64,000 nucleotides of DNA from a virus. Position numbers and translations under genes: made by a program. The stretch lies in IMG/VR virus record IMGVR_UViG_3300044729_001198, positions 96,001 to 160,000 of that record; one strand, given 5' to 3'. This document shows, in pieces, positions 7,706 to 53,115 of the stretch (its first letter is position 1; every line of letters starts with the position of its first letter). Under the pieces are notes generated by a model. It made no database searches and was not told where the DNA came from. It saw nothing but the letters and a program-made list of their open reading frames with translations.

Positions 7706-8275
7706 TTACAAAAGTCTTTTAAATTGGTCAGAGTAGTATTGTTCTAACAATTCTTTTCTTTCCATGGTGGTTAAATGTTCGACAGCCAGAACGGATTTAA
7801 CTCTAATATTAGGATACTTGTCTTGTAATTGAGCTACGGCTTTTACGTTTTTAATCGAGTCATCCATAAATGCAATGTCGGTGTATCCACTTTTAATGTG
7901 TTTTTCAATCCAATCAGCTTTTGCCTGTGGATTAGCATCACCAAGTGCAACAACATAGACATCTACACCCAAATTCTTCTTGAACCAATACTTGACAGGA
8001 AATCCTAACTTACGAGCAGTAAGAATGGTAACTTTCTTTTCAGGACTTGAAATCATTCTTCGTAACAAATCCACATTCTTTTTGATAACCTTTGGATTAT
8101 TCAACATTCTATTAAAATCACGATAGTCGAATGTATCACCTACTTTTGGTTCATAGACAGCATATTCGGCTGGGTCAAGGGTACTTTCAGTACCATCCGA
8201 ATGCTTTACATAAATATATGACACACTTTTCGCAAGCGTGTCATCGAAATCAAAAACTCTTAACGTTTTACCCAT
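7706..8275 (-). CDS. HAD-superfamily hydrolase (PNK-phosphatase-like)
   Basis: VFDFDDTL, ILTAR and FMDDSIKNV (HAD motifs I, II and IV). Confidence 0.8.
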   Translation of the reverse strand: MGKTLRVFDFDDTLAKSVSYIYVKHSDGTESTLDPAEYAVYEPKVGDTFDYRDFNRMLNNPKVIKKNVDLLRRMISSPEKKVTILTARKLGFPVKYWFKKNLGVDVYVVALGDANPQAKADWIEKHIKSGYTDIAFMDDSIKNVKAVAQLQDKYPNIRVKSVLAVEHLTTMERKELLEQYYSDQFKRLL

Positions 8276-39012: not shown

Positions 39013-39426
39013 TTATTTTCCCCACTTACCTCTCTGAACGATTTGGGCGATAATACCATACACCGATAAATCTTCGTATGTGTCTTGGATAGACTCACCC
39101 ACCTCATCCGGCTGTCCTAAAACAACCATTTGTTTTAATCTTTGAACCTTGTCATTGATTCTAAACCACAATCCGGTCAAAGACAATCTAACCTCATCTT
39201 GAGTTTGGAGTGCTGTACCAACCGAAATGTTACCCGGTCCATAGTTTCTTTGTTTTTTACAAAATGTAATATACATCTCGTCCAAAATATTTTTAAACTC
39301 TTCAGTAGTTTGTGGATAGTTTTCTTCACAATACGCAACAGCGCTTTGTTCTGGTCGTGATTCTGATGTGTAGGATTCGCCCTTCCACTCTACCTTTGTC
39401 GTTGCTTCTTTAATTACTTCAGCCAT
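39013..39426 (-). CDS. DUF1599 / nucleotide-modification-associated domain 1-like protein
   Basis: FCKKQRNYG..NI...RINDKVQRL...ESIQDTYEDLSVYGII. Confidence 0.7.
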   Translation of the reverse strand: MAEVIKEATTKVEWKGESYTSESRPEQSAVAYCEENYPQTTEEFKNILDEMYITFCKKQRNYGPGNISVGTALQTQDEVRLSLTGLWFRINDKVQRLKQMVVLGQPDEVGESIQDTYEDLSVYGIIAQIVQRGKWGK

Positions 39427-39869
39427 TTTTGTATTTCTTCTTTTTTGATTCCGTATTTTTGTATGATTTCTATCACTTCCGATTGTGGTAAAATCTCAAG
39501 ATAATCCATTACCTCACGAGATGATACATTAAAATGAGTACACAACCACTTAATGATGTTCTCATTCCATTTGTTATCATCTTTACCTTTAACGTATTTA
39601 TCAAAGCTTTTTCTCTTTGGTAGAACATCTAAATAAAACTTGTAAACTTCACGAGTACCCATGTTACCAATGGTAAATTTCTGATACTCATTCACAAGCT
39701 CCAAGTAATCCATGTTCATGGATAGGAAGCGATTCACCATAAACGGCGAAAATGACTTCCTATCCATTTCGGACAAGGATTCCCATGAAGTTTTTTGGTA
39801 GGTTAACCCACCCAAATGGTCGAATAGAGATTTTGCCTTAATCGTGGCAGTATCACTTTTCTTCGCCAT
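39414..39869 (-). CDS. Clamp loader small subunit (T4 gp62-like)
   Basis: FSPFMVNRFLSM...VNEYQ...YKFYLDVLPKRK; adjacent to the large subunit. Confidence 0.8.
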   Translation of the reverse strand: MAKKSDTATIKAKSLFDHLGGLTYQKTSWESLSEMDRKSFSPFMVNRFLSMNMDYLELVNEYQKFTIGNMGTREVYKFYLDVLPKRKSFDKYVKGKDDNKWNENIIKWLCTHFNVSSREVMDYLEILPQSEVIEIIQKYGIKKEEIQKWLK

Positions 39870-40125
39870 TTTCGAATAGTTCTTTCGGTGTAAACTTTGG
39901 ATGTACAGTACCACACTCATTACAAATTACAACCGGAATTGGAAGCAATGACGCTTGACCGGTTGGTGATTGTAGTGCTGGGACTTCTTTGTACATAGTT
40001 ACCTCACTAAAGAAGATACCTTCACAATTAGGACATTCAACTGTTTTTAGTTTGAATGGGTCTAACTGCATTTTCATTTGTTCGGGTTGCTTTTTACCCA
40101 TTTCGATTACTTTACCTTTTGCCAT
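39853..40125 (-). CDS. Zinc-ribbon protein
   Basis: CPNC...CNECG. Confidence 0.65.
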   Translation of the reverse strand: MAKGKVIEMGKKQPEQMKMQLDPFKLKTVECPNCEGIFFSEVTMYKEVPALQSPTGQASLLPIPVVICNECGTVHPKFTPKELFENGEEK

Positions 40126-40126
40126 T

Positions 40127-41041
40127 TTAGATACTTGTTATAATATTTAACATCATCGCCATCACGTTAATTTCTTTGTCTACTACCATTGAGTCTTTGT
40201 ATTGACCATCTGCGATGTTTAGAATAGTCTGACCCACTTTGTTGTTAGCGTATTCATCAACTCGGTCGTACAACAAACGATACAACGGAGTGAAATCTTT
40301 TACACCCGAATCTGCAATGATTTGACGTACACTTACAAATTTAGATTTAGCATCACCATTACCTTGAAGAACCTTGACAACCTCTTCAGCATAATTCGCC
40401 TGAATTGTGGATTGTTTGTCGATTACTAACTTCTTGTTGATGACTTGTCGTTGAGCTGCGTTTAACACCCTACGAATGTCAGGATATCCACTATTAACAA
40501 GAACAGCAAGGTCCGACATTTCAAACTCAACACCTTCAGTTGTTAGAATATCATTCAATCGTTTTGCAACATCCTTTTTTGATGGTGGTGTAATAGCAAA
40601 CGTTTGACAACGTGATTGAATTGGGTCGATGATTTTTTCGACATAGTTACACGTCAAAATGAATCGGGTCGACTTACTAAAAGTTTCCATCAAATTACGG
40701 AGAGCTGCTTGAGCATTTGGTGTCAAGTAATCAGACTCATCCAAAATAATGATTTTCCACTTTCTGAATCCCATTGATGAAGCGAACCCACGGATTTTGT
40801 CACGAACCGTGTCAACGTTGTTCTCATCAGATGCGTTGATGTACATGACATCACAATCAATCTGATTTGTAATGATTTTAGCCAATGTGGTTTTACCCGT
40901 ACCGGCTTGACCATACAACAGCAAATGTGGTACGTCTTCGTTCTCAATGTAGATTTTTACTTTCTCAAGGATATGTTCGTTTCCGACATAACCTTCTAAC
41001 GTATCGGGTCTATATTTTTCAACCCATAATGTATTACTCAT
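40127..41041 (-). CDS. Clamp loader large subunit (T4 gp44/RFC-like AAA+)
   Basis: LWVEKYRP, GQAGTGKTT, INASDE, IILDESD, SRC. Confidence 0.95.
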   Translation of the reverse strand: MSNTLWVEKYRPDTLEGYVGNEHILEKVKIYIENEDVPHLLLYGQAGTGKTTLAKIITNQIDCDVMYINASDENNVDTVRDKIRGFASSMGFRKWKIIILDESDYLTPNAQAALRNLMETFSKSTRFILTCNYVEKIIDPIQSRCQTFAITPPSKKDVAKRLNDILTTEGVEFEMSDLAVLVNSGYPDIRRVLNAAQRQVINKKLVIDKQSTIQANYAEEVVKVLQGNGDAKSKFVSVRQIIADSGVKDFTPLYRLLYDRVDEYANNKVGQTILNIADGQYKDSMVVDKEINVMAMMLNIITSI

Positions 41042-42228
41042 CTTCCTACTTCGTTTAAATACTTTTCTTTTGCGGCTTCCCAAGACATACCAATAATATC
41101 AAGGTAAAATAATGGTTCTGGTTTTATACGACCCTCTTCGTGTAGTTTCTCATAACGAGATACTGCCTTCTTTTTCCACCAATTCATAGTGTATTCATCG
41201 CCTTTAGCAAATTTGTCTTTTAATACCAATTGGTCTTCGGTGATTTCATTTCGGAGAAACTCATTACCATTCTCATACATTTGAGCAAAGTATACACCCC
41301 TCTTAAATCCATGTTGATATTTAGAAGATTTGATACCAAGCTCCTTGAATATCATATTAATGATTTTTTGTTTTACTCCGGTAGCAGGTCCATCGACATT
41401 TGCCTTTTCAGCAGTTTGTCTTGCGTATTCTTCCGGCTGATTTTCCTTCATCCAATGATGCCATACTTCATATACCGAATCATCTGGTTTAGTAGCAACC
41501 TTACCTGCGGACTCACCAAGTGTTTTGAAGTGTGGGATGCCATTGTATTGTGAATGGATTCCATACAAAGATGTAGTACCGACAGCAATCAAAGTCTGAC
41601 CATACTTTTCTTTCCAATACTTTCTTACGATTGGTGATGTAGCCATACAAGCAATCAACTTACCACCCAAGAAGTTGTATCCCAATGGTTGGGTACATAC
41701 AATAGTAGTAGCAATTGTTGTATGATTTAATTTACCATCTTTGTATTTGTTGTCTTGAGTCCACCCAATATAAGCATCCCTTACACCCAAAGAGGTGACA
41801 TCTGAACCTAACGAAATCATACCTAATACCTTACCACTAACTCGGTCTTTAACATAAATCTTGACATTACGACCGGGATTGGCTGAAAAAGCCATGGTGT
41901 GAATTAGTTTACGGATTTCAGTCCAACGAGTCGATTCTTTAGAATCATCAACAATCTCTACATAGGGTTCGAGTGCCATAACCTCTTTTATAGTTTGTTC
42001 TTTATTATAGATGTCAGTTGGCATCCACAAAGAATCAATATAAGTAGCCATAGCAGCCTTCCTCTTCATTGAGGATGGTAGGTCGGAATTCCACTCTTCC
42101 CATTTCTTGTAAAGAGTTTGTTCTTCAACAGACATAGAAGAAAGGTAGTCCATATTATCTATGAACTTTTTCTTTTCAGCCGTGTAGTCGAACTCCGGTT
42201 TCGCTGGTTCAGTATCCCAAAAACTCAT
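41038..42228 (-). CDS. DUF4338 (DruA-like, Mom/GNAT-related) protein
   Basis: PGRN..IYV.D..SGKVLG.ISLGSD...RDAYIGW...QPLGYNFLGGKLIA...TTSLYG..SQYN. Confidence 0.7.
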   Translation of the reverse strand: MSFWDTEPAKPEFDYTAEKKKFIDNMDYLSSMSVEEQTLYKKWEEWNSDLPSSMKRKAAMATYIDSLWMPTDIYNKEQTIKEVMALEPYVEIVDDSKESTRWTEIRKLIHTMAFSANPGRNVKIYVKDRVSGKVLGMISLGSDVTSLGVRDAYIGWTQDNKYKDGKLNHTTIATTIVCTQPLGYNFLGGKLIACMATSPIVRKYWKEKYGQTLIAVGTTSLYGIHSQYNGIPHFKTLGESAGKVATKPDDSVYEVWHHWMKENQPEEYARQTAEKANVDGPATGVKQKIINMIFKELGIKSSKYQHGFKRGVYFAQMYENGNEFLRNEITEDQLVLKDKFAKGDEYTMNWWKKKAVSRYEKLHEEGRIKPEPLFYLDIIGMSWEAAKEKYLNEVGR

Positions 42229-42923
42229 TACTTAATCTCTACTAAATAGTAATTAGATTTAAACCCATCATGTTCGAATGCAACATGAGCAAGACCTTGA
42301 GACGAAATCTTCAAAGAAGATGCTTTTGCACCTCGGTTAGCATTCAAGATTTCTTTAAGGTATTTAGCCGAGAATGAAATTGGTTCAACGTCAGATACAC
42401 AAGTACACTCAACGTTGATGGAAATTCGGTTCGAGTTAATTTTAGAATATCCCAAAATAACCTCACCTTTGTTACCCTTACACTTAAATGTAAATGTGTC
42501 GGAGTCACTCAAAGCACCTTTTGATTTGATGAACTTACCAACGAACTCATCGTCAAGTGTAACGTTTGAACCAAACTCCGGAAGAGTTTTCAGTTCAGGA
42601 ACTACAGGAATTACTGACAAGTCAGCCAACATATAGTTTACAGACGTACCATTGTCTGAAAATACTAATGATGCCTCACCTTGTTCTACTTTGACGTTTG
42701 AATCCAAAACACCAAGAAGACCTTTTAGTTGTGAAGTCGTGTAAACACCAAACTCACCATTTGGAAATTCTTTCTCTTCAGTCTCAACACTACCCAATAG
42801 GGTTTTGTCATCGGAGATGAATCGAACAGACATTCCTTCATCAGTTGAGTTGATTTTTACGGATTCAACCTCACCACCCAAATTGTAACGGGCTACAAAC
42901 CCTTCAAATGAACTTTTTTTCAT
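42228..42923 (-). CDS. DNA polymerase sliding clamp (gp45-like)
   Basis: 231 aa, acidic, two-repeat beta/alpha pattern; located in the clamp-loader/polymerase operon. Confidence 0.7.
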   Translation of the reverse strand: MKKSSFEGFVARYNLGGEVESVKINSTDEGMSVRFISDDKTLLGSVETEEKEFPNGEFGVYTTSQLKGLLGVLDSNVKVEQGEASLVFSDNGTSVNYMLADLSVIPVVPELKTLPEFGSNVTLDDEFVGKFIKSKGALSDSDTFTFKCKGNKGEVILGYSKINSNRISINVECTCVSDVEPISFSAKYLKEILNANRGAKASSLKISSQGLAHVAFEHDGFKSNYYLVEIK

Positions 42924-42943
42924 GTTTTTATTTTTTATTTAGA

Positions 42944-42975
42944 CAAATATACGAAATTATTTTGAATTATCCAAA
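42944..42975 (-). promoter_or_regulatory. Bacteroidota-type promoter
   Basis: TTTG-N20-TATATTTG. Confidence 0.8.
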
Positions 42976-43578
42976 CCATTGGTGGATTTTTTGCTTTCTT
43001 TTTTTGAATCGGTAAATGTAAATGTTCTTTGTAAGGGTTTCCACATACTTAGCACTTCCATCATCCAATGCGTTTTTCAATTCAATAGCAACGGGCTTTA
43101 GTTTCCCATTGTGTTTGTTTCTTAAAGTTTTGTCGTGATACCTACGACCATTCCACATAATAACCCTTCCGGCTGAAGTTTCACCTACACATTCAAAGTT
43201 TGTAGCTTTATAAACCACACCTTCATGTCCAAATGTTTTATCAGCATATGAGATTATCATTTCTAAATCAGTATTTCGTTGTAACCACCGAAGCGTCCAA
43301 CCTATGAAATAAGATTCAGTATTCTTTGGAGTATCATCAATACACACGAGTCGTTTTAACTCCAAAATCTTTGATGGATTGTTGGTGTACTTTTCAGCAA
43401 CCCCAACCATACCCAACGACCCATACACCATAGCACCAATCATAGTATCACCATCCATCAACTTAAAGCAATATGAAATGTGTAATCCATTCATATTTTT
43501 TGAATAGTGATGAGTTTCCACAAATTTTACAATCTCACTCCGTGGACATAATTCTACTATGTAATTGGTTACACTCAT
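42967..43578 (-). CDS. mom: Mom-like DNA modification protein 1
   Basis: HHYSK...IGAMVYG...LELKRLV...NTESYFIG..L.WL...IISYAD...GHEG.VYKATNF. Confidence 0.8.
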   Translation of the reverse strand: MSVTNYIVELCPRSEIVKFVETHHYSKNMNGLHISYCFKLMDGDTMIGAMVYGSLGMVGVAEKYTNNPSKILELKRLVCIDDTPKNTESYFIGWTLRWLQRNTDLEMIISYADKTFGHEGVVYKATNFECVGETSAGRVIMWNGRRYHDKTLRNKHNGKLKPVAIELKNALDDGSAKYVETLTKNIYIYRFKKRKQKIHQWFG

Positions 43579-43781
43579 TAATTTGTTCGATTGTTGAACT
43601 CGTCCTCCAACATTTCATTAATTTTTTCAATGGTGTACGCATTTTGTAAAACTGAATCTAACACATCGTACGCGCCATCCTCCGAAATATCACCATATCG
43701 GTGGACATCATCGGTGTGCCAGAGATTATCTACATAGTAACCATGTTCTTTTAATACTTGTTTTGCTTGTTCAATATTCAT
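43578..43781 (-). CDS. Hypothetical acidic protein
   Basis: ORF from MNIEQAK. Confidence 0.55.
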   Translation of the reverse strand: MNIEQAKQVLKEHGYYVDNLWHTDDVHRYGDISEDGAYDVLDSVLQNAYTIEKINEMLEDEFNNRTN

Positions 43782-43791
43782 ATCATTCAAA

Positions 43792-46314
43792 TTAAAATCC
43801 AAAAAATTGTGATGCTTTTTCAAGATTTGGGTTTGGTTTATCCCAACCCATAGCATCGTAGAAGTCGGTAATCTTGTTTTCCAACTCTTTTTCCCAAATC
43901 AAGTCCACATCGATGTGTTGACGAATCATGTCTTCAATTTGAGTTGGGTCGTTATGACCGGTGAAAGCCGTTGCCTCAATTCCAAGTGGGTTCTTTTTAA
44001 GATATACCCATTTGATTTTATCACCATCCTTCATAGGTTCATATTTGTAAGGAGCATCAAAGAATTTCAACAATCGATTGTACGTTATAGCAGCCTTAAC
44101 GTGTGCTGGTGTACCTTTCTCAAACTCATTCAAAGAATATACGTTTCGCTTCTTGATATACTTTGACATATCTTTCACAGCAGAGTTCTTTGCGATATCC
44201 ACGAAATTTTGGTCTGACATCTTGTCTTTGAACTCAATAATCTTTGCGTCAATTTCTGATTTGTTAACACCTTTTAGGATATCCAACAACACAGTCTCCA
44301 TTACCTTTTTAAAATATGTTGGGAATGATGACCTACGAACATCCAATCCTTTTACATCCATCTTATCACACGGAACAGTATTGTCGTTGATAATCCATTG
44401 AGCATATCTTTTCTTTGATACCCAAAATCCACCTTTTGCAATAGTTTCTTGTTTGATGTCAAATCGGTGAGAATTCACATTGAACAATTTTTTAGACATT
44501 GTGTCATAGACCTTGTTGATGTGTTCTTGAACTTCTTTAGCTACCGACAAAATAGCGGGAACCATTTGTTCATCGGATGTGGGGTCAATATCTGGATTTC
44601 TGGCTTGAACCAATGGTAGTGCTTGATAAAACACGGAGTCGGTATCGGTATACACGTTATAGTCTCCATCCTTACCAATGATTTTTGTGTAGTATTGGTT
44701 AGCTATCTTTTCAGTAGTCTTAATTACAGTTTGACCGGTGATAGTGGTAGCTTCAGCATTATCCACATCGTAGAATCTAAACGATGGTAATCCCAATACC
44801 CCATACAATGAGTTCAACATAATCTTTTGAACTAACTGACGTTGGGAATAAAATTTGTAAAGGTCGGTCTTACCTTCCTTACCATATTGTTTTTCCAACT
44901 TTCGATACTCAACACGTTTATCAAACCACACATTTAAGATTTCAGGTATAACCCCAATCTTGTCTTGGGTGTATAAAACACCATTTGATGAAATTGAATA
45001 GTTAGATTCTTGGATTAGCTTTTGAAACTGTTCTTTATTCAAAGGTGGATATTGTGTACCATTTTCTTCGACAATTACATAAGACTCAATCATGTCTTTC
45101 ATATAATCCTCTGAAGAGAATGATTTTAACTTACCAATCTTGGTTTCGGGGCTAACATTCAATGTCATAATGATAGATGGATATAGAGATGTCAAGTCCA
45201 AGTCATATACCCACTTGTAAAGACCAGGTTTTGGTTCTTTAACATAAGCACCTGTAAACTTTTCTTCACCATCAGTACCATCCTCATTTTTATCAGCTCT
45301 ATGAGGTTTGTCAGGAGCAACACGGCCGCTCCTACGCAAGAACGTCAAGATAGCACCTTCTAACCATTTTGATGAGAATAAGAAATCTTCATAGAAAACG
45401 TGACCGGCGTGACAAATCGCTTGAGCAAGTTCAATGAACTGAAGTTTTTTATCCATGTCTACCACCAACTCAACGTCAACCAAGTTGTACTCAATGAATT
45501 TTTCAATGTCATCACGGAACAATTGGTCAAGATTACCCTTGTATTCAATTTTACCACGACCCAATACGATATTAGCGATGGTGTCCAATCGATAGTTAGG
45601 GAATTCTTGGTAGGTAAAGTTTTTGTAGAGAGCCAAGTAGTCCAAACAACTCACCCCAGCAATGATATAACGATTACGATATTTGTTGTACCCAATCTTA
45701 CCAATAGGCGATAGTTTGTTTGCCATTCGTTCACCCACAACATTCTTGAGTCGATTGTACAAATATGTAATATCAAAGTAGTCAATATTCCAACCCGTTA
45801 CAATTGTTGGATTAATTTCTTGCCACTTGTTTAAGAATGATACCAATAGGTCTTCTTCAGTATCGAATGAACGAACCTCGGCTCCTTTAATACGTTTGTT
45901 AATATTACCACCCTTACTTACAACATATACAAAGTAATCGTTTGTAACCGAATCATGTCCTGCGATTGATGTAATCTCATTTTCAGCTTTATTGATATCT
46001 GGAAGACCAGAATTCATCTCAACCTCAATATCGAATGTCAAGACTGTATGACCTGTAGATACTTCATCTGAATCGCCATACTCGTCAATCAAGAAACGAG
46101 TTACCTCGTTCACATCAGATTCGTATAGTTTTAGATTATCTTCTTTTTTCCAAAAGTTTATCTTTTTAAGACGCTCTCCGTGAATAGAAGTAAAAGCACC
46201 ACTCCCATCTCTAACATAAGCATATCTACGGTACTTACTTGTAAAATAACCCTTTTTGTCATCCCAACAATGGATGATACTTTGTTCCTTATCATAGTAT
46301 ACATTTTGATACAT
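43792..46314 (-). CDS. polB: Family B DNA polymerase (T4 gp43-like)
   Basis: Exo I FDIEVE; motif A YDLDLTSLYPS; motif B KIMLNSLYG; motif C YTDTDS. Confidence 0.97.
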   Translation of the reverse strand: MYQNVYYDKEQSIIHCWDDKKGYFTSKYRRYAYVRDGSGAFTSIHGERLKKINFWKKEDNLKLYESDVNEVTRFLIDEYGDSDEVSTGHTVLTFDIEVEMNSGLPDINKAENEITSIAGHDSVTNDYFVYVVSKGGNINKRIKGAEVRSFDTEEDLLVSFLNKWQEINPTIVTGWNIDYFDITYLYNRLKNVVGERMANKLSPIGKIGYNKYRNRYIIAGVSCLDYLALYKNFTYQEFPNYRLDTIANIVLGRGKIEYKGNLDQLFRDDIEKFIEYNLVDVELVVDMDKKLQFIELAQAICHAGHVFYEDFLFSSKWLEGAILTFLRRSGRVAPDKPHRADKNEDGTDGEEKFTGAYVKEPKPGLYKWVYDLDLTSLYPSIIMTLNVSPETKIGKLKSFSSEDYMKDMIESYVIVEENGTQYPPLNKEQFQKLIQESNYSISSNGVLYTQDKIGVIPEILNVWFDKRVEYRKLEKQYGKEGKTDLYKFYSQRQLVQKIMLNSLYGVLGLPSFRFYDVDNAEATTITGQTVIKTTEKIANQYYTKIIGKDGDYNVYTDTDSVFYQALPLVQARNPDIDPTSDEQMVPAILSVAKEVQEHINKVYDTMSKKLFNVNSHRFDIKQETIAKGGFWVSKKRYAQWIINDNTVPCDKMDVKGLDVRRSSFPTYFKKVMETVLLDILKGVNKSEIDAKIIEFKDKMSDQNFVDIAKNSAVKDMSKYIKKRNVYSLNEFEKGTPAHVKAAITYNRLLKFFDAPYKYEPMKDGDKIKWVYLKKNPLGIEATAFTGHNDPTQIEDMIRQHIDVDLIWEKELENKITDFYDAMGWDKPNPNLEKASQFFGF

Positions 46315-47447
46315 TATCCGTTTAGTTTTTTATGTAATTCTTGAATCATCTTGTCTTCGTTCAAAGATAGCTCCATTGCTCTTTGAAGTGACAATTTGTC
46401 TTGTTCTTGTCTGAATGTGTCATCATCCAACATTTTATCTAAATACGCAAAGAATTCTTTCTTGGTCTTAAAGAACATTCCGTTTGGGTCAATCTCATAG
46501 TAACAATCAGATTCTTGCCAAATCATTGGAGTTCCGTTCATCATACAATCCGTACCACTAACCGACCACCCATAGTTGGTTTGTCTCATCTGAACCCCAA
46601 CCTTACAATTCTGAAGTCGTTGATAGTATTCGTGTTTTGGAACTTTTGTGTTGTCAATCCACGAGTGTGGAGCGTCACCTACTAATTGTGGAATCCAAAC
46701 ATTGAAGTCTTGTCGTTGTGTACGATACTCTTCCATCAATTCAATAAACTTTGGATATCCTTTGTATGCGGCCGCTCGATGGTTGAATACGATGGTATTT
46801 TCTTTTGAAAGTTTTACATCACCAACTATTTTATCTTGAGGTACACCCAAATTCCATACCTTTAAAATACCATCTAATTTTTGAACAAACTCATGGTTAA
46901 AAGTCTCCATTGCCTCATTTAAAACTCTATCTTTTTGGTCTTGGGTGTTAAGATAACAGACATCCATTTGTGATACTCCAAGGATTTCTATTGGTAACCA
47001 CAACCATTTAGCTTTTCCAGCTCTATTGTCAGGCCCATTACATGACTTCATTTCCCACCAATGACAATAACCTACAATTTTAGTGTCCATTGATTTCTTG
47101 TATCTACCCACTTGCGGCCAGTCCGGTAAATGTGAGTAGATTACATCATAATCAATGTCTTTCAGTAGGTTGATTAGTTTTGGAGATGGGAATGACCTCT
47201 GATTCATCATATCACCGGGAATATCAATCTGATGTTGCTTGACGTTTGGCAAGTTCAACTTCTTACTGATTTTACCACTTGGCATGAGTATGTTCCAATA
47301 ATACTCACCATATGATTCTAATGCTTTGATATGATTATGTATCACATCTACAAAAGAATCTTTATCAATATTAGAAGAGTTGGTGATGTTCGGTATCACC
47401 AACACTTTCCGTGCTTTATTATAATCTATACTATCCCAAAAACTCAT
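46314..47447 (-). CDS. GT-B glycosyltransferase, candidate DNA glycosyltransferase
   Basis: VFNHRAAAYKGYPKF, DCMMNGTP; translationally coupled to the DNA polymerase. Confidence 0.6.
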   Translation of the reverse strand: MSFWDSIDYNKARKVLVIPNITNSSNIDKDSFVDVIHNHIKALESYGEYYWNILMPSGKISKKLNLPNVKQHQIDIPGDMMNQRSFPSPKLINLLKDIDYDVIYSHLPDWPQVGRYKKSMDTKIVGYCHWWEMKSCNGPDNRAGKAKWLWLPIEILGVSQMDVCYLNTQDQKDRVLNEAMETFNHEFVQKLDGILKVWNLGVPQDKIVGDVKLSKENTIVFNHRAAAYKGYPKFIELMEEYRTQRQDFNVWIPQLVGDAPHSWIDNTKVPKHEYYQRLQNCKVGVQMRQTNYGWSVSGTDCMMNGTPMIWQESDCYYEIDPNGMFFKTKKEFFAYLDKMLDDDTFRQEQDKLSLQRAMELSLNEDKMIQELHKKLNG

Positions 47448-47451
47448 TTAC

Positions 47452-47483
47452 CTAATATACAAAATAATTTTTACATTTACAAA
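47452..47483 (-). promoter_or_regulatory. Bacteroidota-type promoter (variant)
   Basis: TTTG-N20-TATATTAG. Confidence 0.7.
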
Positions 47484-47876
47484 TCAGACCATTGGAAATC
47501 CAACAGCTGAATTTGTCGTTGAACGATATTGTGGTGCGTTTGAACTCCAACCTTTTGAGTGATTACTAAAAGGCCGGCTACCAAATGAATTAGCTACCAT
47601 TGGTGACGGTTGTCCAATACTATCCCAACTACTTTCAAACTTTTCAACAACAGTACCCTCTTTAAATGTAATCGTTGACTCATCAAACGAATCTAACATT
47701 TTCATAGATACTTTACGAAACACATTCTTCCGCTCTGGCTTAATTACTTCAATGAATAAAAGTGAACGTACTTTAACACGACATACTTTTAAATTCATTG
47801 AGAACAATACACCTTTAACAGGTATAACCACCTTTACAATTTTACCTTGAAGTTCTGATAATTCCATACTCATCAT
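47484..47876 (-). CDS. Hypothetical protein
   Basis: ORF from MMSMEL, downstream of a promoter. Confidence 0.55.
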   Translation of the reverse strand: MMSMELSELQGKIVKVVIPVKGVLFSMNLKVCRVKVRSLLFIEVIKPERKNVFRKVSMKMLDSFDESTITFKEGTVVEKFESSWDSIGQPSPMVANSFGSRPFSNHSKGWSSNAPQYRSTTNSAVGFPMV

Positions 47877-47888
47877 ATTATTACTATA

Positions 47889-47920
47889 CAAAGATAAGGA
47901 ATTAATTTGACATATACAAG
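47889..47920 (-). promoter_or_regulatory. Bacteroidota-type promoter
   Basis: CTTG-N20-TATCTTTG. Confidence 0.7.
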
Positions 47921-47925
47921 CCTTT

Positions 47926-48720
47926 TTACCAAAAGTTTACTTTATTTTCCGGCTCGTAAGTTTCGTATCGTTCTGCCTTTGGTAGAATATCATTGATATC
48001 TTTTGGTGGAGTTTCACATGGGTGTTTCAAAGAATTCAACAACTTTTTCTTTTCAGACTTGTTCGTTGGTAGAATTTGAATGTATCGTAGTTTGGACATT
48101 TCTTTTCTACGCCAGAACTCTTTATACCCATCCTTACCAATTTCAGTTTTGAGGTGTTCCAAGTTATGTGACCCCCAACGTGAGAATACAGTCCGTGAAT
48201 GAATGTACTGACCATCCTCACCTTCCAAACAAATTCCATAATTTGGCATTAATTGTATTTTGTTTGTATCTTGAAATAACCAATTCGTAGCACGATAGAT
48301 ACCACCCAAGTGACCTTGGAACGGGTCTGAATATGATAGTAACATTTTGATATTTGGAGCGTGTTCTCTCATCCACTTAAATGTTTGACCCAAAGCGTAT
48401 GATTCAATATTAGACCCATACCCATCGTGAATGAACAATCGAGTCAACTCTAAACATTGGTCATTACCCAACCCATCAATTATTGAGGTTACAGCCGACC
48501 TGCCAACAGGAAATCCATAGACAGCAACACCAATCAGTTTTTCATCATTACCAAGAATGTCTTTCTCATCGGTTTTGTAAAACACACCCAATGCGTATCT
48601 ACACATGGTCCAAGCGTGCGAATAGTGATACGTTACAATCATATCTTTTGCAATCGCTTTGTTAATCTCACGAATTGATACTCGTGAGGTGTCCACATAA
48701 TGTTTATTTTCCTGTTTCAA
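47926..48720 (-). CDS. mom: Mom-like DNA modification protein 2
   Basis: YHYS...AVYGFPVGR...LELTRLF..DGYG.NIES...SYSDP..GHLG.IYRATNW; probable TTG start at 48720. Confidence 0.8.
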   Translation of the reverse strand: MKQENKHYVDTSRVSIREINKAIAKDMIVTYHYSHAWTMCRYALGVFYKTDEKDILGNDEKLIGVAVYGFPVGRSAVTSIIDGLGNDQCLELTRLFIHDGYGSNIESYALGQTFKWMREHAPNIKMLLSYSDPFQGHLGGIYRATNWLFQDTNKIQLMPNYGICLEGEDGQYIHSRTVFSRWGSHNLEHLKTEIGKDGYKEFWRRKEMSKLRYIQILPTNKSEKKKLLNSLKHPCETPPKDINDILPKAERYETYEPENKVNFW

Positions 48721-49330
48721 AATTAAAAAAATGAGAATGGGTAGTAGTTGAACTTTCGATGAAACTAGCCAAAAAGTCATGTAGTTTATAGTATGGTTTA
48801 ACGATATTAGACCATTTATAATTTACTTCTTGATGCTGTACATCTTTGTCACATTCAATCTTGTCGTTGTTTACAAAAATTACATTTTCAATACCAGCAG
48901 GTAACATTCTTAAATATTTTGAATTTCCTGTACATAAAACACCTTTACTGTCTTTCGTAATCACAATATATTTTATACCCATTTTATGGTATCTCTCAAT
49001 GTGTAGAATGGAAGCATATGCTGAATTGTCTTGGAATGATGATTTTGATGATAGTATAAGTTGAACTTTTCCAAATGGGTCAATCAATACAAAATCAACA
49101 TCGGGAATATCACCATTCCATGCAATTTGTTTAAAAATTTCACTTGTTGGTTTTGTACTACCTATGTGTACAATATCCCATCCGGAGTACCACCTTAAAA
49201 TTCTCGTAACATCATCAACGAGATATTTTTCAAGAGCATCGCCTCTTAATTTAAGAATAGAACCTAAATGGCTCATTGCGTCTTTTTCTTCGGGTTTAAT
49301 TAAATCGCCTAATAATTCTACTCCTGTCAT
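48704..49330 (-). CDS. Restriction-endonuclease-like PD-(D/E)XK protein
   Basis: IPDVDFVL...ILSSKSSFQD...KYIVITKD resembles type II REase active-site motifs. Confidence 0.5.
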   Translation of the reverse strand: MTGVELLGDLIKPEEKDAMSHLGSILKLRGDALEKYLVDDVTRILRWYSGWDIVHIGSTKPTSEIFKQIAWNGDIPDVDFVLIDPFGKVQLILSSKSSFQDNSAYASILHIERYHKMGIKYIVITKDSKGVLCTGNSKYLRMLPAGIENVIFVNNDKIECDKDVQHQEVNYKWSNIVKPYYKLHDFLASFIESSTTTHSHFFNFETGK

Positions 49331-50082
49331 TTTACAATTGGTTCTAATTTATGTATCTCTTCTTCAAAGACCTCACTTACTTTTGGATATGGTAGTGATG
49401 GATACTTCAATGTATCAAATATACGATTTTTTTTCGACTTATCCAAAATATAAACATATCTATGTTTCCTTGGTTCTTTTTTAATCCAAAATGGTTTATC
49501 TACCATTTCTTGTATTTTTGTAGGATTGTTTGTACCATATCTAACAAACGAAGTTCTACTATGATGCCATTCATCGGTTTCATCCCATTTGAATGACCAC
49601 GAATCATTGGGTCGGATTCTATTACCTTGATATATCCAATTTGTAGACTGATACACAGTACCCAAGTGTCCTACTTTAGGGTCTGAATATGATACCAATG
49701 CTCTAATGTGTGGTACGTTTTGACGTAACCATTTAAAGGTCTGGCTTACAAACCAACTTTCAATGTTACAACCATAACCATCAAATACAAATAGTCGGGT
49801 CAACTCAAGGACTTCAGTTCGGTCAAGAAGTGGAGAAATGGATTGGCCGGAGTGTCTACCTACAGGATCTCCATAAGTAGCAACTCCGACCAACTCTTCA
49901 TTTACACCACTAAAAAATTGATGTTCACTTTCTGATTTGTAAAATAACCCAAGAGCATAAGATACCTTTGTCCAAATACCACTATAGTGATTGTTTACAA
50001 TGATATCTTTTGCAATTGATTTTGCGATAGGTCTTACCGAAAATTTACTTATGTCAGAATAAAGTTTACCTTCAACTTTCAT
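49327..50082 (-). CDS. mom: Mom-like DNA modification protein 3 (paralog of 2)
   Basis: NHYSG...ATYGDPVGR...LELTRLFVFDGYG.NIESW...SYSDP..GHLG.VYQSTNW. Confidence 0.8.
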   Translation of the reverse strand: MKVEGKLYSDISKFSVRPIAKSIAKDIIVNNHYSGIWTKVSYALGLFYKSESEHQFFSGVNEELVGVATYGDPVGRHSGQSISPLLDRTEVLELTRLFVFDGYGCNIESWFVSQTFKWLRQNVPHIRALVSYSDPKVGHLGTVYQSTNWIYQGNRIRPNDSWSFKWDETDEWHHSRTSFVRYGTNNPTKIQEMVDKPFWIKKEPRKHRYVYILDKSKKNRIFDTLKYPSLPYPKVSEVFEEEIHKLEPIVK

Positions 50083-50287
50083 ACGGCCAGTTTAGGATAT
50101 GAGTCCAAGTTTCACCTTTAACAATCTTACGGATGTTTGCAGGAGAAACGCCATGATTTCTGGCAAGGACTTTAATATTCCTATGACCAATAGCCCATAG
50201 TTTACGAATTGCTTTAACTTGCTCTTCAGTAAGTTTATGGGCTGGGTGTGATTCTCCTCGTAACGACATCCTAAACCTTTTCATCAA
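50072..50287 (-). CDS. Stand-alone HTH protein (type usually fused to HNH endonucleases)
   Basis: GESHPAHKLTEEQVKAIR...LARNHGVS...I..IVKGETWTHI. Confidence 0.7.
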   Translation of the reverse strand: MMKRFRMSLRGESHPAHKLTEEQVKAIRKLWAIGHRNIKVLARNHGVSPANIRKIVKGETWTHILNWPYES

Positions 50288-50705
50288 ATTCTATTTGCAT
50301 CTGACCTTCGCCACTTTTCCAAGCATCATGAATAATCTTATCGATGTTTGGTTTAAAGTAGTTAGGTCCTTTCATAACTTTTCCATCTTCACGATAGATG
50401 GGTTTGCCATCCTCACCCAACTTTGACATATTTGACCGATGGACTTCATCAAATATGGTTACGATTGTATCTTGCATACCATGAACTAACATAGTTCCCA
50501 ACAAAATGTAAAGTTGGTCAGCAAGAGCATCAGCAATACCAACTGGGTCATCATTTTGATTTGCTTCGAGATATTCATCCAACTCTTCCTTACCAAGTCG
50601 GTATCTTAATTGAGCAAGTTCATCCGATTGAGCACAGGGTGATTTTTCAATTGGGTGTCCAAATACACTATGGAACTCTTTAAGTTGTTCTAATTGTTCT
50701 ATCAT
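50271..50705 (-). CDS. MazG-like / PRA-PH-like NTP pyrophosphohydrolase
   Basis: EELDEY...IADALAD.LY...EVHRSNMSK...REDGKVMKGPNY. Confidence 0.85.
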   Translation of the reverse strand: MIEQLEQLKEFHSVFGHPIEKSPCAQSDELAQLRYRLGKEELDEYLEANQNDDPVGIADALADQLYILLGTMLVHGMQDTIVTIFDEVHRSNMSKLGEDGKPIYREDGKVMKGPNYFKPNIDKIIHDAWKSGEGQMQIEFDEKV

Positions 50706-50710
50706 AACCA

Positions 50711-50742
50711 CTAATATACGAATTTATTTTTAATTTTCCAAG
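50711..50742 (-). promoter_or_regulatory. Bacteroidota-type promoter (variant)
   Basis: CTTG-N20-TATATTAG. Confidence 0.6.
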
Positions 50743-51962
50743 ACATTTGCTAAATTTTTTGCGTCTACGATGTTATCCTCTATTGAACAATATGTCCAAG
50801 AACCATATCTACCTATGGAGTATATTCCCAATTTATTATAATCTAAACACCAACTATTATATAGTTGTTTTGATTCTTTTGTAATATGTACATATGCTGG
50901 GTTCATAACTAAAAACTGATAATCAACGAGGTCATGAGTATCAACAATATTTACACGTTCTAAATCTTTCAGAACCATTTTTAACAAAACACCCTCATCT
51001 ATAAGTTGGGTTTCAGACAAACCAATCTCAACATATAAACTCATTTTTTCATGTCCCAAAATATTATTGTAAAACCCAACTCTGTAAAAAACCTCTGAAC
51101 CCGGAAAGTATCTCCAATGTGTTTTTATAGAAGTACCTTTGTCAAATCCTAAATTAAAAACAGCTACCTTATTAGAAGATAGATTATCAAATTTACGATT
51201 GGATAATTTTAAAAGATTTTTAAATGGAATTGTACTTACAAGATTTTCAAATTGAATCTTTTCTCCTGAATTTGTAGTTACAATCTTATCATCATAGTCT
51301 ATCGATGATATTGTAGTATTTAATTGAATCTTTGATTCATCTACCCGTTTTAGTATAGATTTTATATACTCGTAGCTACCACCGGTTGGATATATGAACG
51401 TGTCATTGTATGATTTTGATTTTTTCGAGTCTCGTAACTCATCGAAGCTAACCATTTTTGGAAAAAACCGACCCATAGAATCGGATTCAAGTTCATCGAG
51501 ATTACAAGCATATAATTTTTCATTATACGGAATTACAAACCTATCACAAATAGCAGCACCAAGGGATGATTTAACGTATGATTTAAATGTAGAATTATCA
51601 ATCTCTTTACATTTTTCCAAGTCTTCCAAACATTGATGATATTCAGCATTACTTAACTGATGAATGTTATGTTGAAATGGAAAATCTATAATTTGATAGT
51701 TGTAGTAAATATCAGTAATTTTTTCAACTTCTAACAAATCACATTCTATGTTTTCTAAAACATAGTTTTTAATTTCTTCGTTTTTAAAGTGAAAGAAATG
51801 ACCAGAATAATCCCAAACATAATCACCTCGCTTTTCGGTTTTGCAATAACCACCAAGTTCGGAGTCTTTTTCTAAAATGAGATAATCTCTCTTTGACAAA
51901 TACGAAGCCAAAGAGAGACCGGTCACCCCACCACCGATAATTAGTACATCAGTTTTTTTCAT
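50730..51962 (-). CDS. FAD-dependent oxidoreductase (UDP-galactopyranose mutase/HemG-like fold)
   Basis: IIGGGVTGLS, LEK..ELGG.C.T, WDYSGH, SIGRYGSWTY. Confidence 0.8.
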   Translation of the reverse strand: MKKTDVLIIGGGVTGLSLASYLSKRDYLILEKDSELGGYCKTEKRGDYVWDYSGHFFHFKNEEIKNYVLENIECDLLEVEKITDIYYNYQIIDFPFQHNIHQLSNAEYHQCLEDLEKCKEIDNSTFKSYVKSSLGAAICDRFVIPYNEKLYACNLDELESDSMGRFFPKMVSFDELRDSKKSKSYNDTFIYPTGGSYEYIKSILKRVDESKIQLNTTISSIDYDDKIVTTNSGEKIQFENLVSTIPFKNLLKLSNRKFDNLSSNKVAVFNLGFDKGTSIKTHWRYFPGSEVFYRVGFYNNILGHEKMSLYVEIGLSETQLIDEGVLLKMVLKDLERVNIVDTHDLVDYQFLVMNPAYVHITKESKQLYNSWCLDYNKLGIYSIGRYGSWTYCSIEDNIVDAKNLANVLEN

Positions 51963-53115
51963 CCAATTTGTTGTTGAAATGTTTTAGATTGTCAAAAAGT
52001 CTATCTTTTGAAGATTCAAACTCTGAATCGTTTAATATTTCTAACAAATAACCAATACCTTCTTCATATCTACCAGTCCAATAGCAAGAAACAGACAATT
52101 CATCATTTATGTACTTACCATACGCTTTTTCATTAATAAACAAAATGTATTTTGATTTTGCATTATCAAGGCTTAAAGTATGAGCTTTACTCAAATAGCC
52201 ATAAGCAAGTTCCCACTCACCGATAGAATTTAAATATCCACCCAAAGTCAAATATGGTTCGGCTCGGTCTGGAAACAAGTTTATGGCAGATTCCATTTCT
52301 ACAATAATTTCATTCAAATTACTTTGCAGTCTCATAAGACATACCGAACTTCTCATATGAGCCTCAAATACTTCTTCAATCCATACATTTTTTAATTTTA
52401 GATACAATCGATTCCATTGTAACGCTTCACGATACATACCATAGTCCATGTAACTTTGGGCTGTATAAAATACAGACCGACTATTCAACTCATCAGGATC
52501 ATTTACCAAAGTATCCCAAAATTGCTTTTGCAATCTTTCAGCATCATACAAATACTTTTTAGGGTCAAATGCTCGAGAACCAATACCTTCACCTGATATA
52601 TAAAATCCGCCATTTGACAAATCTCCGGTTGTATAATTTGGCTTGTCTAAATTCTTGATTGTAGTATGAGCTACACCACAAAATTTCCAACTATGATTAC
52701 CATTAAACATAATCAATGCTTTCCATTCTGAAGTACCACGTTTTACAGGAATAAAATAAGCGTCTCTAAAATCTATTGAAACATCATCAAAAACTTGTGC
52801 AAATTGAAAAGAAAAATCACCTACCAATAAGTCATCAGCATCAAGATGCATGATATAGTCGGCTTTACCTTTAGAACGCTCCATCATCAAAGTTTTATTG
52901 TGGTCAAAGCCCACCCACTCATCTTCATGTAATTCGCCGGGAATATTTCTATCTTTAAAAAATGATTTTACAAGTTCTATTGTTTTATCAGTAGAGCCGG
53001 TGTCACACACAATCCAATAATCGATGTGGTCAGCTACTGACTCCAATGTTTGTAAAATACAATGTTCTTCGTTTTTGCACATTGTAGCAAAAACTATAGT
53101 TGGTTTTTTTATCAT
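51949..53115 (-). CDS. GT2 glycosyltransferase with C-terminal TPR region
   Basis: TMCKNEE, DTGSTD, LDADD; helical TPR-like C-terminal half. Confidence 0.85.
   Translation of the reverse strand: MIKKPTIVFATMCKNEEHCILQTLESVADHIDYWIVCDTGSTDKTIELVKSFFKDRNIPGELHEDEWVGFDHNKTLMMERSKGKADYIMHLDADDLLVGDFSFQFAQVFDDVSIDFRDAYFIPVKRGTSEWKALIMFNGNHSWKFCGVAHTTIKNLDKPNYTTGDLSNGGFYISGEGIGSRAFDPKKYLYDAERLQKQFWDTLVNDPDELNSRSVFYTAQSYMDYGMYREALQWNRLYLKLKNVWIEEVFEAHMRSSVCLMRLQSNLNEIIVEMESAINLFPDRAEPYLTLGGYLNSIGEWELAYGYLSKAHTLSLDNAKSKYILFINEKAYGKYINDELSVSCYWTGRYEEGIGYLLEILNDSEFESSKDRLFDNLKHFNNKLDEKN

Follow-up and report, generated by a model that had tools for sequence, protein, structure and literature searches.

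Evidence for a Mom-DruA DNA modification module in the replication operon of a T4-like freshwater phage, with tRNA-Gly-like RNAs as candidate glycine donors

Phage Mu's Mom enzyme moves glycine from Gly-tRNA(Gly) onto the N6 of adenine in double-stranded DNA, after which a rearrangement on the base yields N6-carbamoylmethyl-adenine (PMC13219725). It works on DNA that has already been replicated and does not require the pool of deoxynucleoside triphosphates (dNTPs) to be altered, and it depends upon the body of tRNA(Gly), Gly-tRNA(Ala) not being used; its active site is lined by H58, Y59, R111, S124, D149, R151, and Y159, and a helix-turn-helix (HTH)-like insertion is essential (PMC13219725). 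Multiple Moms and pairs of a Mom with a nuclease are already known from comparative genomics, and in Staphylococcus a non-proteogenic tRNA(Gly) is known to serve transferases outside the ribosome (PMC7826273). Here we describe a locus in a 64,000-nucleotide stretch of viral DNA (positions 96,001 to 160,000 of IMG/VR record IMGVR_UViG_3300044729_001198; this whole stretch is referred to as the window) in which three Mom-family genes, a gene of the DruA/DUF4338 family and a putative glycosyltransferase (GT) gene are interleaved with the genes for the clamp loader, the sliding clamp and a family B DNA polymerase (PolB).

The record from which the window is taken comprises 186,631 bases, is estimated to be 98% complete, and represents an uncultured ~187-kb T4-like freshwater (lake) phage with a GC content of ~35%. 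Its nearest isolate is Microcystis phage Mel-JY01 (48.6% identity in PolB), T4-like cyanophages come next by PolB (~31-33% identity), and a megablast of the entire region against isolate phages returned no match. The genes of the window lie on the minus strand, and this holds for every gene of the operon given below. In the order of transcription, from 50711 to 39013, they encode a MazG-like nucleotide pyrophosphohydrolase, a 71-amino acid HTH protein, Mom3, a 208-amino acid protein, Mom2, then after a spacer the GT, PolB, a 92-amino acid protein and Mom1, followed by the clamp, the DruA/DUF4338 protein, a gp44-like protein, a zinc-ribbon protein, a gp62-like protein and a DUF1599-like protein. 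An earlier note made from the sequence alone had listed several of these genes as a DNA hypermodification cluster embedded in the replisome, and comparison with Pfam and PHROG bore out its gene list and positions. The explanation that we favor for the locus as a whole, and that we consider reasonably probable, is a Mom-DruA modification module within the replication operon, served by likely private glycine donors. On this view the phage most likely masks its DNA in a manner akin to that of Mu, though more elaborately.

A whole-genome search identified exactly three Mom genes, all intact and far above the Pfam gathering cut-off for PF25680 of 27.1 bits, which agrees with the earlier note: Mom1 (203 amino acids, 42967..43578, 118 bits), Mom2 (264 amino acids from a TTG start, 47926..48720, 159 bits) and Mom3 (251 amino acids, 49327..50082, 155 bits). 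The start of Mom2 is most likely the TTG at 48720, which is the start used in all relatives, rather than the 48780 of the open reading frame. Mom2 and Mom3 are 47% identical to one another, and Mom1 is ~33% identical to either over the core. When the three proteins were aligned with Mu Mom, residues H58, Y59, R111, S124, D149, and Y159 proved invariant in all of them, and these six catalytic columns are also invariant among 14 Mom2 and 19 Mom3 orthologues, apart from D149N in 2 of the 14 Mom2 sequences. At the column of Mu R151 the Mom2 family has G, E, or F, with no basic residue, and the Mom3 family has K in 17 of 19 members. The HTH-like insertion of Mu Mom (residues 175-209) aligns without large gaps in the paralogues, with H183, T186, and G193 invariant.

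Relatives of the locus were collected from IMG/VR as 76 loci found by a Mom2 search and 80 more found by a PolB profile. The gene order HTH-Mom3-Mom2, with the TTG start of Mom2 overlapping the end of Mom3, is conserved in the 76 loci. The earlier note had taken the multiplicity of Moms as a sign of several sequence specificities; a single two-subunit enzyme made of Mom2 and Mom3 fits at least as well, since the two overlapping genes behave as an obligate pair, their active sites being unequal, and they are probably subunits of one enzyme. True orthologues of Mom1 are confined to the closest relatives, and the 92-amino acid gene (43578..43856; no family match in Pfam or PHROG) is found only where Mom1 orthologues occur. 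By its distribution, Mom1 is a lineage-specific extra Mom.

The DruA-like gene always accompanies the Mom pair, even when it has moved to a place beside Mom2 (loci L057 and L071) or before PolB (L054). Whole-record searches found exactly one DruA in 16/16 Mom-positive records and neither Mom nor DruA in Mel-JY01, G063, or G064, the last two being complete genomes. A PolB tree with 64 distinct rows requires at least 8 changes of state for Mom2 and at least 7 for DruA, and DruA tracked Mom2 in 6 of 7 independent contrasts, with none in the opposite direction (p 0.03). The same tree shows the GT-B-type GT tracking Mom2 in 4-5 of 7 contrasts, again with none opposite, and the GT occurs only in loci with DruA/Mom (50/50 versus 0/21). 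Taken together, these patterns suggest that the modification set (Mom3-Mom2, the DruA-like gene and usually the GT) is inherited as a unit, which fills a slot of the operon ahead of PolB and a second slot that separates clamp from clamp loader.

What relatives without Mom carry in these slots bears upon function. In such relatives, whose PolB is 73-80% identical, the slots are either empty, as in L172 where the HTH gene abuts PolB, or hold other modifiers. In L171, an ABC-ATPase+GNAT protein (L171:8788-9969) lies before PolB and a TET-associated glycosyltransferase (TAGT, PF20691, 122 bits; L171:13276-14529) lies between clamp and clamp loader; proteins of the former type are predicted to acylate DNA bases (Iyer et al., PMC7824862). 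Sub-threshold N6_N4-methylase-like proteins are present before PolB in L203 and L198, and a sub-threshold methylase-like protein is found between clamp and loader in L220. An acyltransferase and a glycosyltransferase thus recur as a pair in these slots, and the occupation of the same slots by different DNA modifiers is the best indirect evidence that the DruA-like protein and the GT act on DNA. The earlier proposal of a DNA modification module within the replisome operon is therefore strengthened by co-inheritance, by a fold like that of Mu Mom, by the restriction of the GT to the module and by slot exchange. We also observed that the slot between Mom2 and GT is hypervariable in relatives, holding mutually unrelated proteins of 500-680 amino acids with no Pfam match (L011:11424-13220, L019:10857-12632, L022:11010-13058, L033:10987-12510, and L054:10889-12643), and that one group of relatives has a GroEL/Cpn60-family chaperonin gene between PolB and clamp (L022:16971-18587).

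The DruA-like gene (41038..42228) scores 87.3 bits against PF14236 (DUF4338), for which the cut-off is 27, and shares base 42228 with the stop of the gp45-like sliding clamp gene (42228..42923; PHROG 223, DNA polymerase processivity factor, E 4e-11). An AlphaFold (AF2) model of the protein (pLDDT, the predicted local distance difference test, 84) has a GNAT core at residues 81-343, and the top match of this model among 48,161 PDB representatives is Mu Mom itself (8bv8_B, Z 10.1, root mean square deviation 3.9, 167 residues aligned), with generic GNATs following at Z 9.4-8 and the aminoacyl-tRNA-dependent FemA at rank 4. The matches listed by Foldseek were all acetyltransferases, headed by the tRNA cytidine acetyltransferase TmcA. 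The searches with Mom and DUF4338 profiles that the earlier note had proposed thus gave scores above the gathering cut-offs throughout, and its description of a clamp-coupled, Mom-related DUF4338 gene agrees with both the shared base and the structural match. NCBIfam gave no name for the protein. The genes druB-druE are absent beside it, the neighbors being the clamp and the clamp loader, and hidden Markov model (HMM) profile comparison by hhalign with the proteins of unknown family found in the DruA slot of Mom-less relatives gave nothing. Some relatives have a second, shorter DruA-family gene between HTH and Mom3 (L071:8519-9250; 243 amino acids, 76 bits).

The GT gene (46314..47447) shares base 46314 with the start of PolB (43792..46314; Pfam DNA_pol_B and exonuclease domains), in line with the coupling named in the earlier note, the GT label itself being weak. 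It derives from sub-threshold matches to Glyco_transf_4 (E 9e-5) and Glyco_trans_1_2 and from ESM Atlas neighbors, which are GT4 clusters. No match was obtained when the GT profile was searched against PDB sequences, nor to the glucosyltransferase families of T4, and NCBIfam has no name for the GT, the MazG or the DUF1599-like protein.

Among T4-like phages, a C-terminal tail of the polymerase binds the clamp in T4 and RB69. The PolB of the window ends in ..ASQFFGF (clade consensus KFFxF), Mom1 ends in ..HQWFG, a PolB-like aromatic terminus, and Mom2 ends in an invariant ..FW placed behind a variable acidic linker. By analogy, the tails of Mom1 and Mom2 may bind the sliding clamp as the PolB tail does.

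Between Mom3 and Mom2, and overlapping both, lies a gene for a 208-amino acid protein (48704..49330) whose AF2 model is of moderate confidence (pLDDT 68.6). The best structure matches of the model are BsaWI (Z 11.3) and AgeI (Z 9.8), with PspGI, PfoI, SgrAI, Bse634I, NgoMIV (Z 7.8) and Cfr10I (Z 7.8) also matched, and D79 and S95-K96, which form a D...SxK-type motif, are invariant in six homologues. As modeled, the protein has the PD-(D/E)XK restriction-endonuclease fold of the CCGG family. None of the 155 related loci has the gene, not even that of a relative whose Mom2 is 96% identical, and its insertion is exact, with the TTG overlap re-created, so that its translation is coupled to that of both neighbors. 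A copy with 88% identity likewise stands just before a Mom gene, and homologues of 73% and 31% identity have small early-type genes around them and no Mom in the vicinity. The absence from related loci and the homologues without a nearby Mom point to a mobile cassette that recently landed in the Mom operon. No methyltransferase gene is adjacent, the flanks being Mom genes, and it is plausible that the nuclease spares Mom-modified DNA.

In addition to the operon genes, the genome encodes two 74-nt cloverleaf RNAs resembling tRNA-Gly, which lie outside the window on the minus strand at genome positions C1:75217-75290 and 75711-75784 (L006:7217-7290 and 7711-7784), ~65 kb from the Mom genes and within an array of tRNA genes whose members include a normal tRNA-Gly(GCC). 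ARAGORN and Rfam made no call for either RNA. A covariance model search found 108 copies in IMG/VR phages, usually two per genome; across the 64 distinct RNAs among them 99% of cells are paired, and double-sided changes are seen in 18 of 21 pairs. The identity set of glycyl-tRNA synthetase (GlyRS), taken from PMC7826273, is kept in these RNAs (G1:C72, C2:G71, G3:C70, U73, C35, and C36), as is A37. Altered, by comparison, are the D loop (TTRARAGAA, without GG), the T loop (GGCRG), position 33, which may be any base, and position 34, where U or A is found; judged from these changes the RNAs look unfit for decoding. A literature search revealed no mention of such tRNA-Gly-like RNAs in searchable papers.

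The RNAs and Mom tend to occur together. Among Mom-positive genomes with a completeness of 84% or more, 8 were picked regardless of the RNA; 7 of these contain it, and the one without it seems to be an incomplete version of a genome type of 271 kb in which the RNA is present. Conversely, 8/8 near-complete genomes that were picked by the RNA and contain PolB have Mom pairs, and three complete genomes that lack Mom also lack the RNAs, although ordinary tRNAs number 21 and 25 in two of them. On the unbiased set this co-occurrence gives a Fisher p of ~0.02, which is suggestive. One candidate counter-example, genome G047 (behind locus L137; RNA-positive, Mom-negative, 96% complete by CheckV), was rejected as a fragment that has no PolB. 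CheckV completeness is unreliable for this clade, whose genomes span 167-287 kb, G047 lacking the PolB/replisome module despite its estimate. Beside the DruA-like genes of the Mom-less Pelagibacter phages Mosig and HTVC008M, no RNA of the R1 type was found. The array of the phage also contains a freshwater-1 RNA (Rfam RF02979, 74 bits; L006:7052-7113, genome C1:75052-75113, minus strand), which lies between the tRNA-Gly(GCC) and one tRNA-Gly-like RNA and is covered by the metatranscriptome.

From these families, folds, conserved residues and patterns of co-inheritance we infer the following chemistry. The Moms would transfer a glycyl group from Gly-tRNA(Gly) to adenine N6 in double-stranded DNA, producing N6-carbamoylmethyl-adenine or a variant of it and blocking host restriction. 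Within the presumed Mom3-Mom2 heterodimer, Mom3 has the full catalytic set, and the diverged Mom2 may be held on the sliding clamp by its aromatic tail. The DruA-like protein would act in the same pathway, either upon a second target or in a second acyl step, and the GT may further decorate the product. Mom1 and the nuclease cassette are additions of this phage lineage, and the nuclease, co-translated with Mom3 and Mom2, would cut unmodified host or competitor DNA. The two tRNA-Gly-like RNAs would be the likely private donors of glycine. A bolder version, which we regard as rather doubtful at present, is that Mom3-Mom2, the DruA-like protein and the GT-B together make an undescribed hypermodification, e.g., an N6-glycyl or oligoglycyl adenine that is trapped, ahead of its rearrangement, through a second transfer of an acyl or glycosyl group; PolB-like tails would keep the enzymes on the clamp at the fork, and two tRNA-Gly mimics excluded from the ribosome, perhaps one per Mom, would feed them. 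If true, such a machine would modify DNA in a tRNA-dependent manner, coupled to replication and with its own supply, and it would hint at the role of DruA in Druantia defense.

Several observations weigh against the proposal of a Mom-DruA module with its own glycine donors. No modified base has been observed. Residue R151, which is essential in Mu, is not kept, being T in Mom1, F in Mom2, and K in Mom3, and the two Mom2 orthologues noted above have N at D149. The lead of Mu Mom over generic GNATs in the structural ranking of the DruA-like protein is less than 1 Z unit, and hhalign of its profile against the Mom2 profile found no sequence similarity, so that the link between DruA and Mom rests on structure and co-inheritance. 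The GT is missing in 12 of 61 Mom-positive loci, and we know of no glycosyl acceptor on N6-carbamoylmethyl-adenine. The nuclease cassette is also found away from Mom genes in other phages. As to the RNAs, they and the Mom set occur within one large phage clade, and their co-occurrence therefore rests on few independent events; genomes G004-G007, which are Mom-positive and 71-84% complete, are without the RNA, although these are probably partial genomes because they are near-identical in the Mom-PolB region to the 271-kb G008, where the RNA lies 106 kb from Mom. No phage GlyRS and no CCA-adding enzyme were found in the genome, and metatranscriptome contigs cover the array spacers at 100% identity but not the two RNAs, which is evidence neither for nor against.

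Two alternatives would change the chemistry altogether. The earlier note drew an analogy with T-even phages, under which a canonical dNTP is eliminated by MazG and a modified base is made that the GT-B then glycosylates, with the Moms adding further marks, each of its own specificity. The presence of MazG (50271..50711; PRA-PH/MazG 57.7 bits, PHROG 671, E 3e-42), the GT-B and the DUF1599-like gene (39013..39426; 137 amino acids, PHROG 1485, function unknown) in one operon speaks for such a pathway, as does the precedent of T4, which combines a dCTPase, a hydroxymethylase and GT-B glucosyltransferases. However, MazG is present in the Mom-less loci L170 and L171, and both MazG and the DUF1599-like gene persist in relatives that have lost Mom, DruA, and GT. 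The 71-amino acid HTH gene is likewise retained directly before PolB in Mom-less L172, and since all three genes are kept in Mom-less relatives we assign them to the replication backbone. The earlier note was thus right that MazG and the DUF1599-like gene are interleaved in the operon, and wrong in counting them with the module, the DUF1599 label itself scoring below its cut-off (22.5 bits versus 25). Furthermore, the only thymidylate-synthase-family gene of the genome is a true ThyA (NCBIfam equivalog NF002496, 330 versus 325; TIGR03284, 318 versus 108), the whole genome yielded no ThyX and no TGT/DpdA, and Mom works on double-stranded DNA after replication and leaves the dNTP pool untouched (PMC13219725). 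With only ThyA present, no ThyX or TGT/DpdA found and MazG independent of the module, the analogy, including removal of canonical dNTPs and glucosylation of a hydroxymethyl base, is removed, and we consider such a pathway very improbable. More plausible than this, yet still improbable, is that the GNAT proteins are no DNA modifiers at all and acylate tRNA or aminoacyl-tRNA, as TacT and AtaT do, or replisome or host proteins, or else that the DruA-like protein is a Druantia decoy unrelated to Mom. The GNAT fold by itself leaves the substrate open (PMC13219725), and R151 is not conserved. The lack of any sequence-level link between DruA and Mom points the same way. To our knowledge, DruA is known solely from a defense system of unknown biochemistry. 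Against this stand the scores of 118-159 bits on the Mom model, the retention of 6 of the 7 Mu active-site residues, the aligned insertion with its three invariant residues, and the recognized DNA modifiers in the same slots of relatives, as well as the gain and loss of DruA with Mom and not alone.

The remaining two alternatives concern parts of the proposal and are better placed. The tRNA-Gly-like RNAs may be unconnected with Mom and DruA and serve as decoys or spares against defenses directed at tRNA(Gly), or be unusual decoding tRNAs, with the co-occurrence a clade effect. A preprint on the antiphage toxSAS FaRel2 describes selection of tRNA(Gly) via its acceptor stem (bioRxiv 10.1101/2024.07.05.602228), and TacT, as cited in PMC13219725, acetylates Gly-tRNA(Gly); in addition, ordinary host tRNA(Gly) suffices for Mu Mom (PMC13219725) and the RNAs are encoded far from the Mom genes. 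The changes in the RNAs, however, affect position 33 and both the D loop and the T loop, the parts relevant to the ribosome and EF-Tu, and not the acceptor stem that a FaRel2 decoy must offer, and the pattern matches that of the staphylococcal non-proteogenic tRNA(Gly) of the Fem transferases (PMC7826273). The RNAs are missing from the two complete relatives that lack Mom yet have 21 and 25 normal tRNAs, and present in Mom-positive relatives with similar arrays. On balance we hold an unrelated role of the RNAs to be unlikely, though a serious contender. Slightly more weight, while still tentative, goes to the possibility that the 208-amino acid nuclease and the flanking Moms constitute a true restriction-modification pair. 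It is favored by the restriction-endonuclease fold, by the translational overlap with both Moms, by the 88%-identical copy that also directly precedes a Mom gene, and by fusions of Mom with restriction-endonuclease domains in jumbo phages (Iyer et al., PMC7824862), and disfavored by the absence of the nuclease from the 155 related loci, even beside a 96%-identical Mom2, and by the two more distant homologues that have no Mom near.

The other features of the region belong to the replication machinery or stand at its edges. Downstream of the DruA-like gene are the gp44-like AAA+ subunit of the clamp loader (40127..41083; Pfam AAA, DNA_pol3_delta2, and Gp44_lid), a 90-amino acid protein of the clamp-loader operon with weak zinc-ribbon matches (39853..40125), which is kept in relatives and has a similar-sized gene at its place in Mel-JY01, and the gp62-like small subunit of the clamp loader (39414..39920; Pfam Phage_clamp_A, 29.6 bits). 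The HTH gene upstream of Mom3 (50072..50287) has a weak match to HTH_28 and PHROG matches to HTH and HNH C-terminal-domain families. The 478-nt spacer (47448-47925) contains a doubtful open reading frame of 135 amino acids (47484..47891) that has no family match and is absent from all related loci. Just upstream of MazG are an FAD-dependent oxidoreductase-like gene (50730-51962), with weak matches of the UDP-galactopyranose-mutase/amine-oxidase type that are all below cut-off, and a GT-A-like gene (51949-53115) with a weak SunS-type match, both of which are kept only in the closest relative. Elsewhere in the genome, the thymidylate synthase gene (C1:93759-94841, minus strand) encodes 367 amino acids, longer than usual, and an insertion is suggested by the HMM matches falling in two or three stretches.

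Mom chemistry has been solved only in 2026, for one enzyme in one phage (Silva et al. 2026, PMC13219725). In a large and abundant clade of aquatic phages, Mom enzymes occur as a fixed pair within the replisome operon, where they are interchangeable with other modifiers, and the module offers a handle on the biochemistry of DruA, and hence of Druantia. The tails further suggest that modification is coupled to replication through clamp binding, and we propose that these phages may encode glycyl-tRNA donors of their own for use outside translation, as staphylococci have for building the cell wall.

Compared with the systems described to date, the locus is closest to Mu Mom (PF25680; PDB 8bv8; PMC13219725), with which it shares the HMM family, six active-site residues, an alignable insertion and a phage location. 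Mu, however, has one late gene under Com, whereas here three genes stand in a replication operon, two of them as a conserved overlapping pair whose active sites are not alike; R151 is not conserved, Mom1 and Mom2 have PolB-like aromatic tails, and tRNA-Gly mimics, a GT and a partner of the DruA family are found alongside. The jumbo phages with multiple Moms (PMC7824862) likewise carry several Moms per phage (five reported for PA5oct) and associate Mom with a restriction-fold nuclease, but theirs are fusions; in the present locus an inserted cassette encodes the nuclease separately, and the Mom pair, fixed in the replisome operon, shares its inheritance with DruA. The nuclease resembles the CCGG-family endonucleases BsaWI (4zsf), AgeI (5dwa), Cfr10I (1cfr), and NgoMIV (1fiu), which are its top structure matches, and has a D...SxK-type motif as in Cfr10I; it differs in being 208 amino acids long instead of 270-310 and in having no methyltransferase partner. 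With the DruA of type I Druantia the DruA-like protein has HMM membership in common (PF14236/DUF4338, 87.3 bits), but it lacks druB-E, is phage-borne between clamp and loader and is co-inherited with Mom.

The T4 pathway of hydroxymethylcytosine glucosylation (gp42, gp56, and the alpha- and beta-glucosyltransferases) similarly places a GT-B and an NTP pyrophosphatase among replication genes; here, in contrast, there is no hydroxymethylase and MazG is independent of the module. For the RNAs, the nearest counterpart is the non-proteogenic tRNA(Gly) of Staphylococcus with FmhB, FemA, and FemB (Rietmeyer et al. 2021, PMC7826273), in which the GlyRS identity set is also kept and the D and T arms differ, and FemA is at rank 4 in the fold search of the DruA-like protein. 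The phage RNAs belong to an unrelated lineage, are phage-encoded, have undergone more radical changes (a free position 33, GGCRG) and are proposed to serve a DNA acceptor. Finally, the predicted systems of ABC-ATPase+GNAT and TAGT proteins (Iyer et al. 2013 and 2021) belong to different protein families, which are absent from the window, but in L171 they occupy the same two replisome slots and again pair an acyltransferase-type protein with a glycosyltransferase. What goes beyond the multiple Moms and Mom-nuclease pairs known before is the fixed Mom pair, its partnership with DruA, the exchange of modifiers within the slots, the possible clamp-binding tails and the tRNA-Gly mimics.

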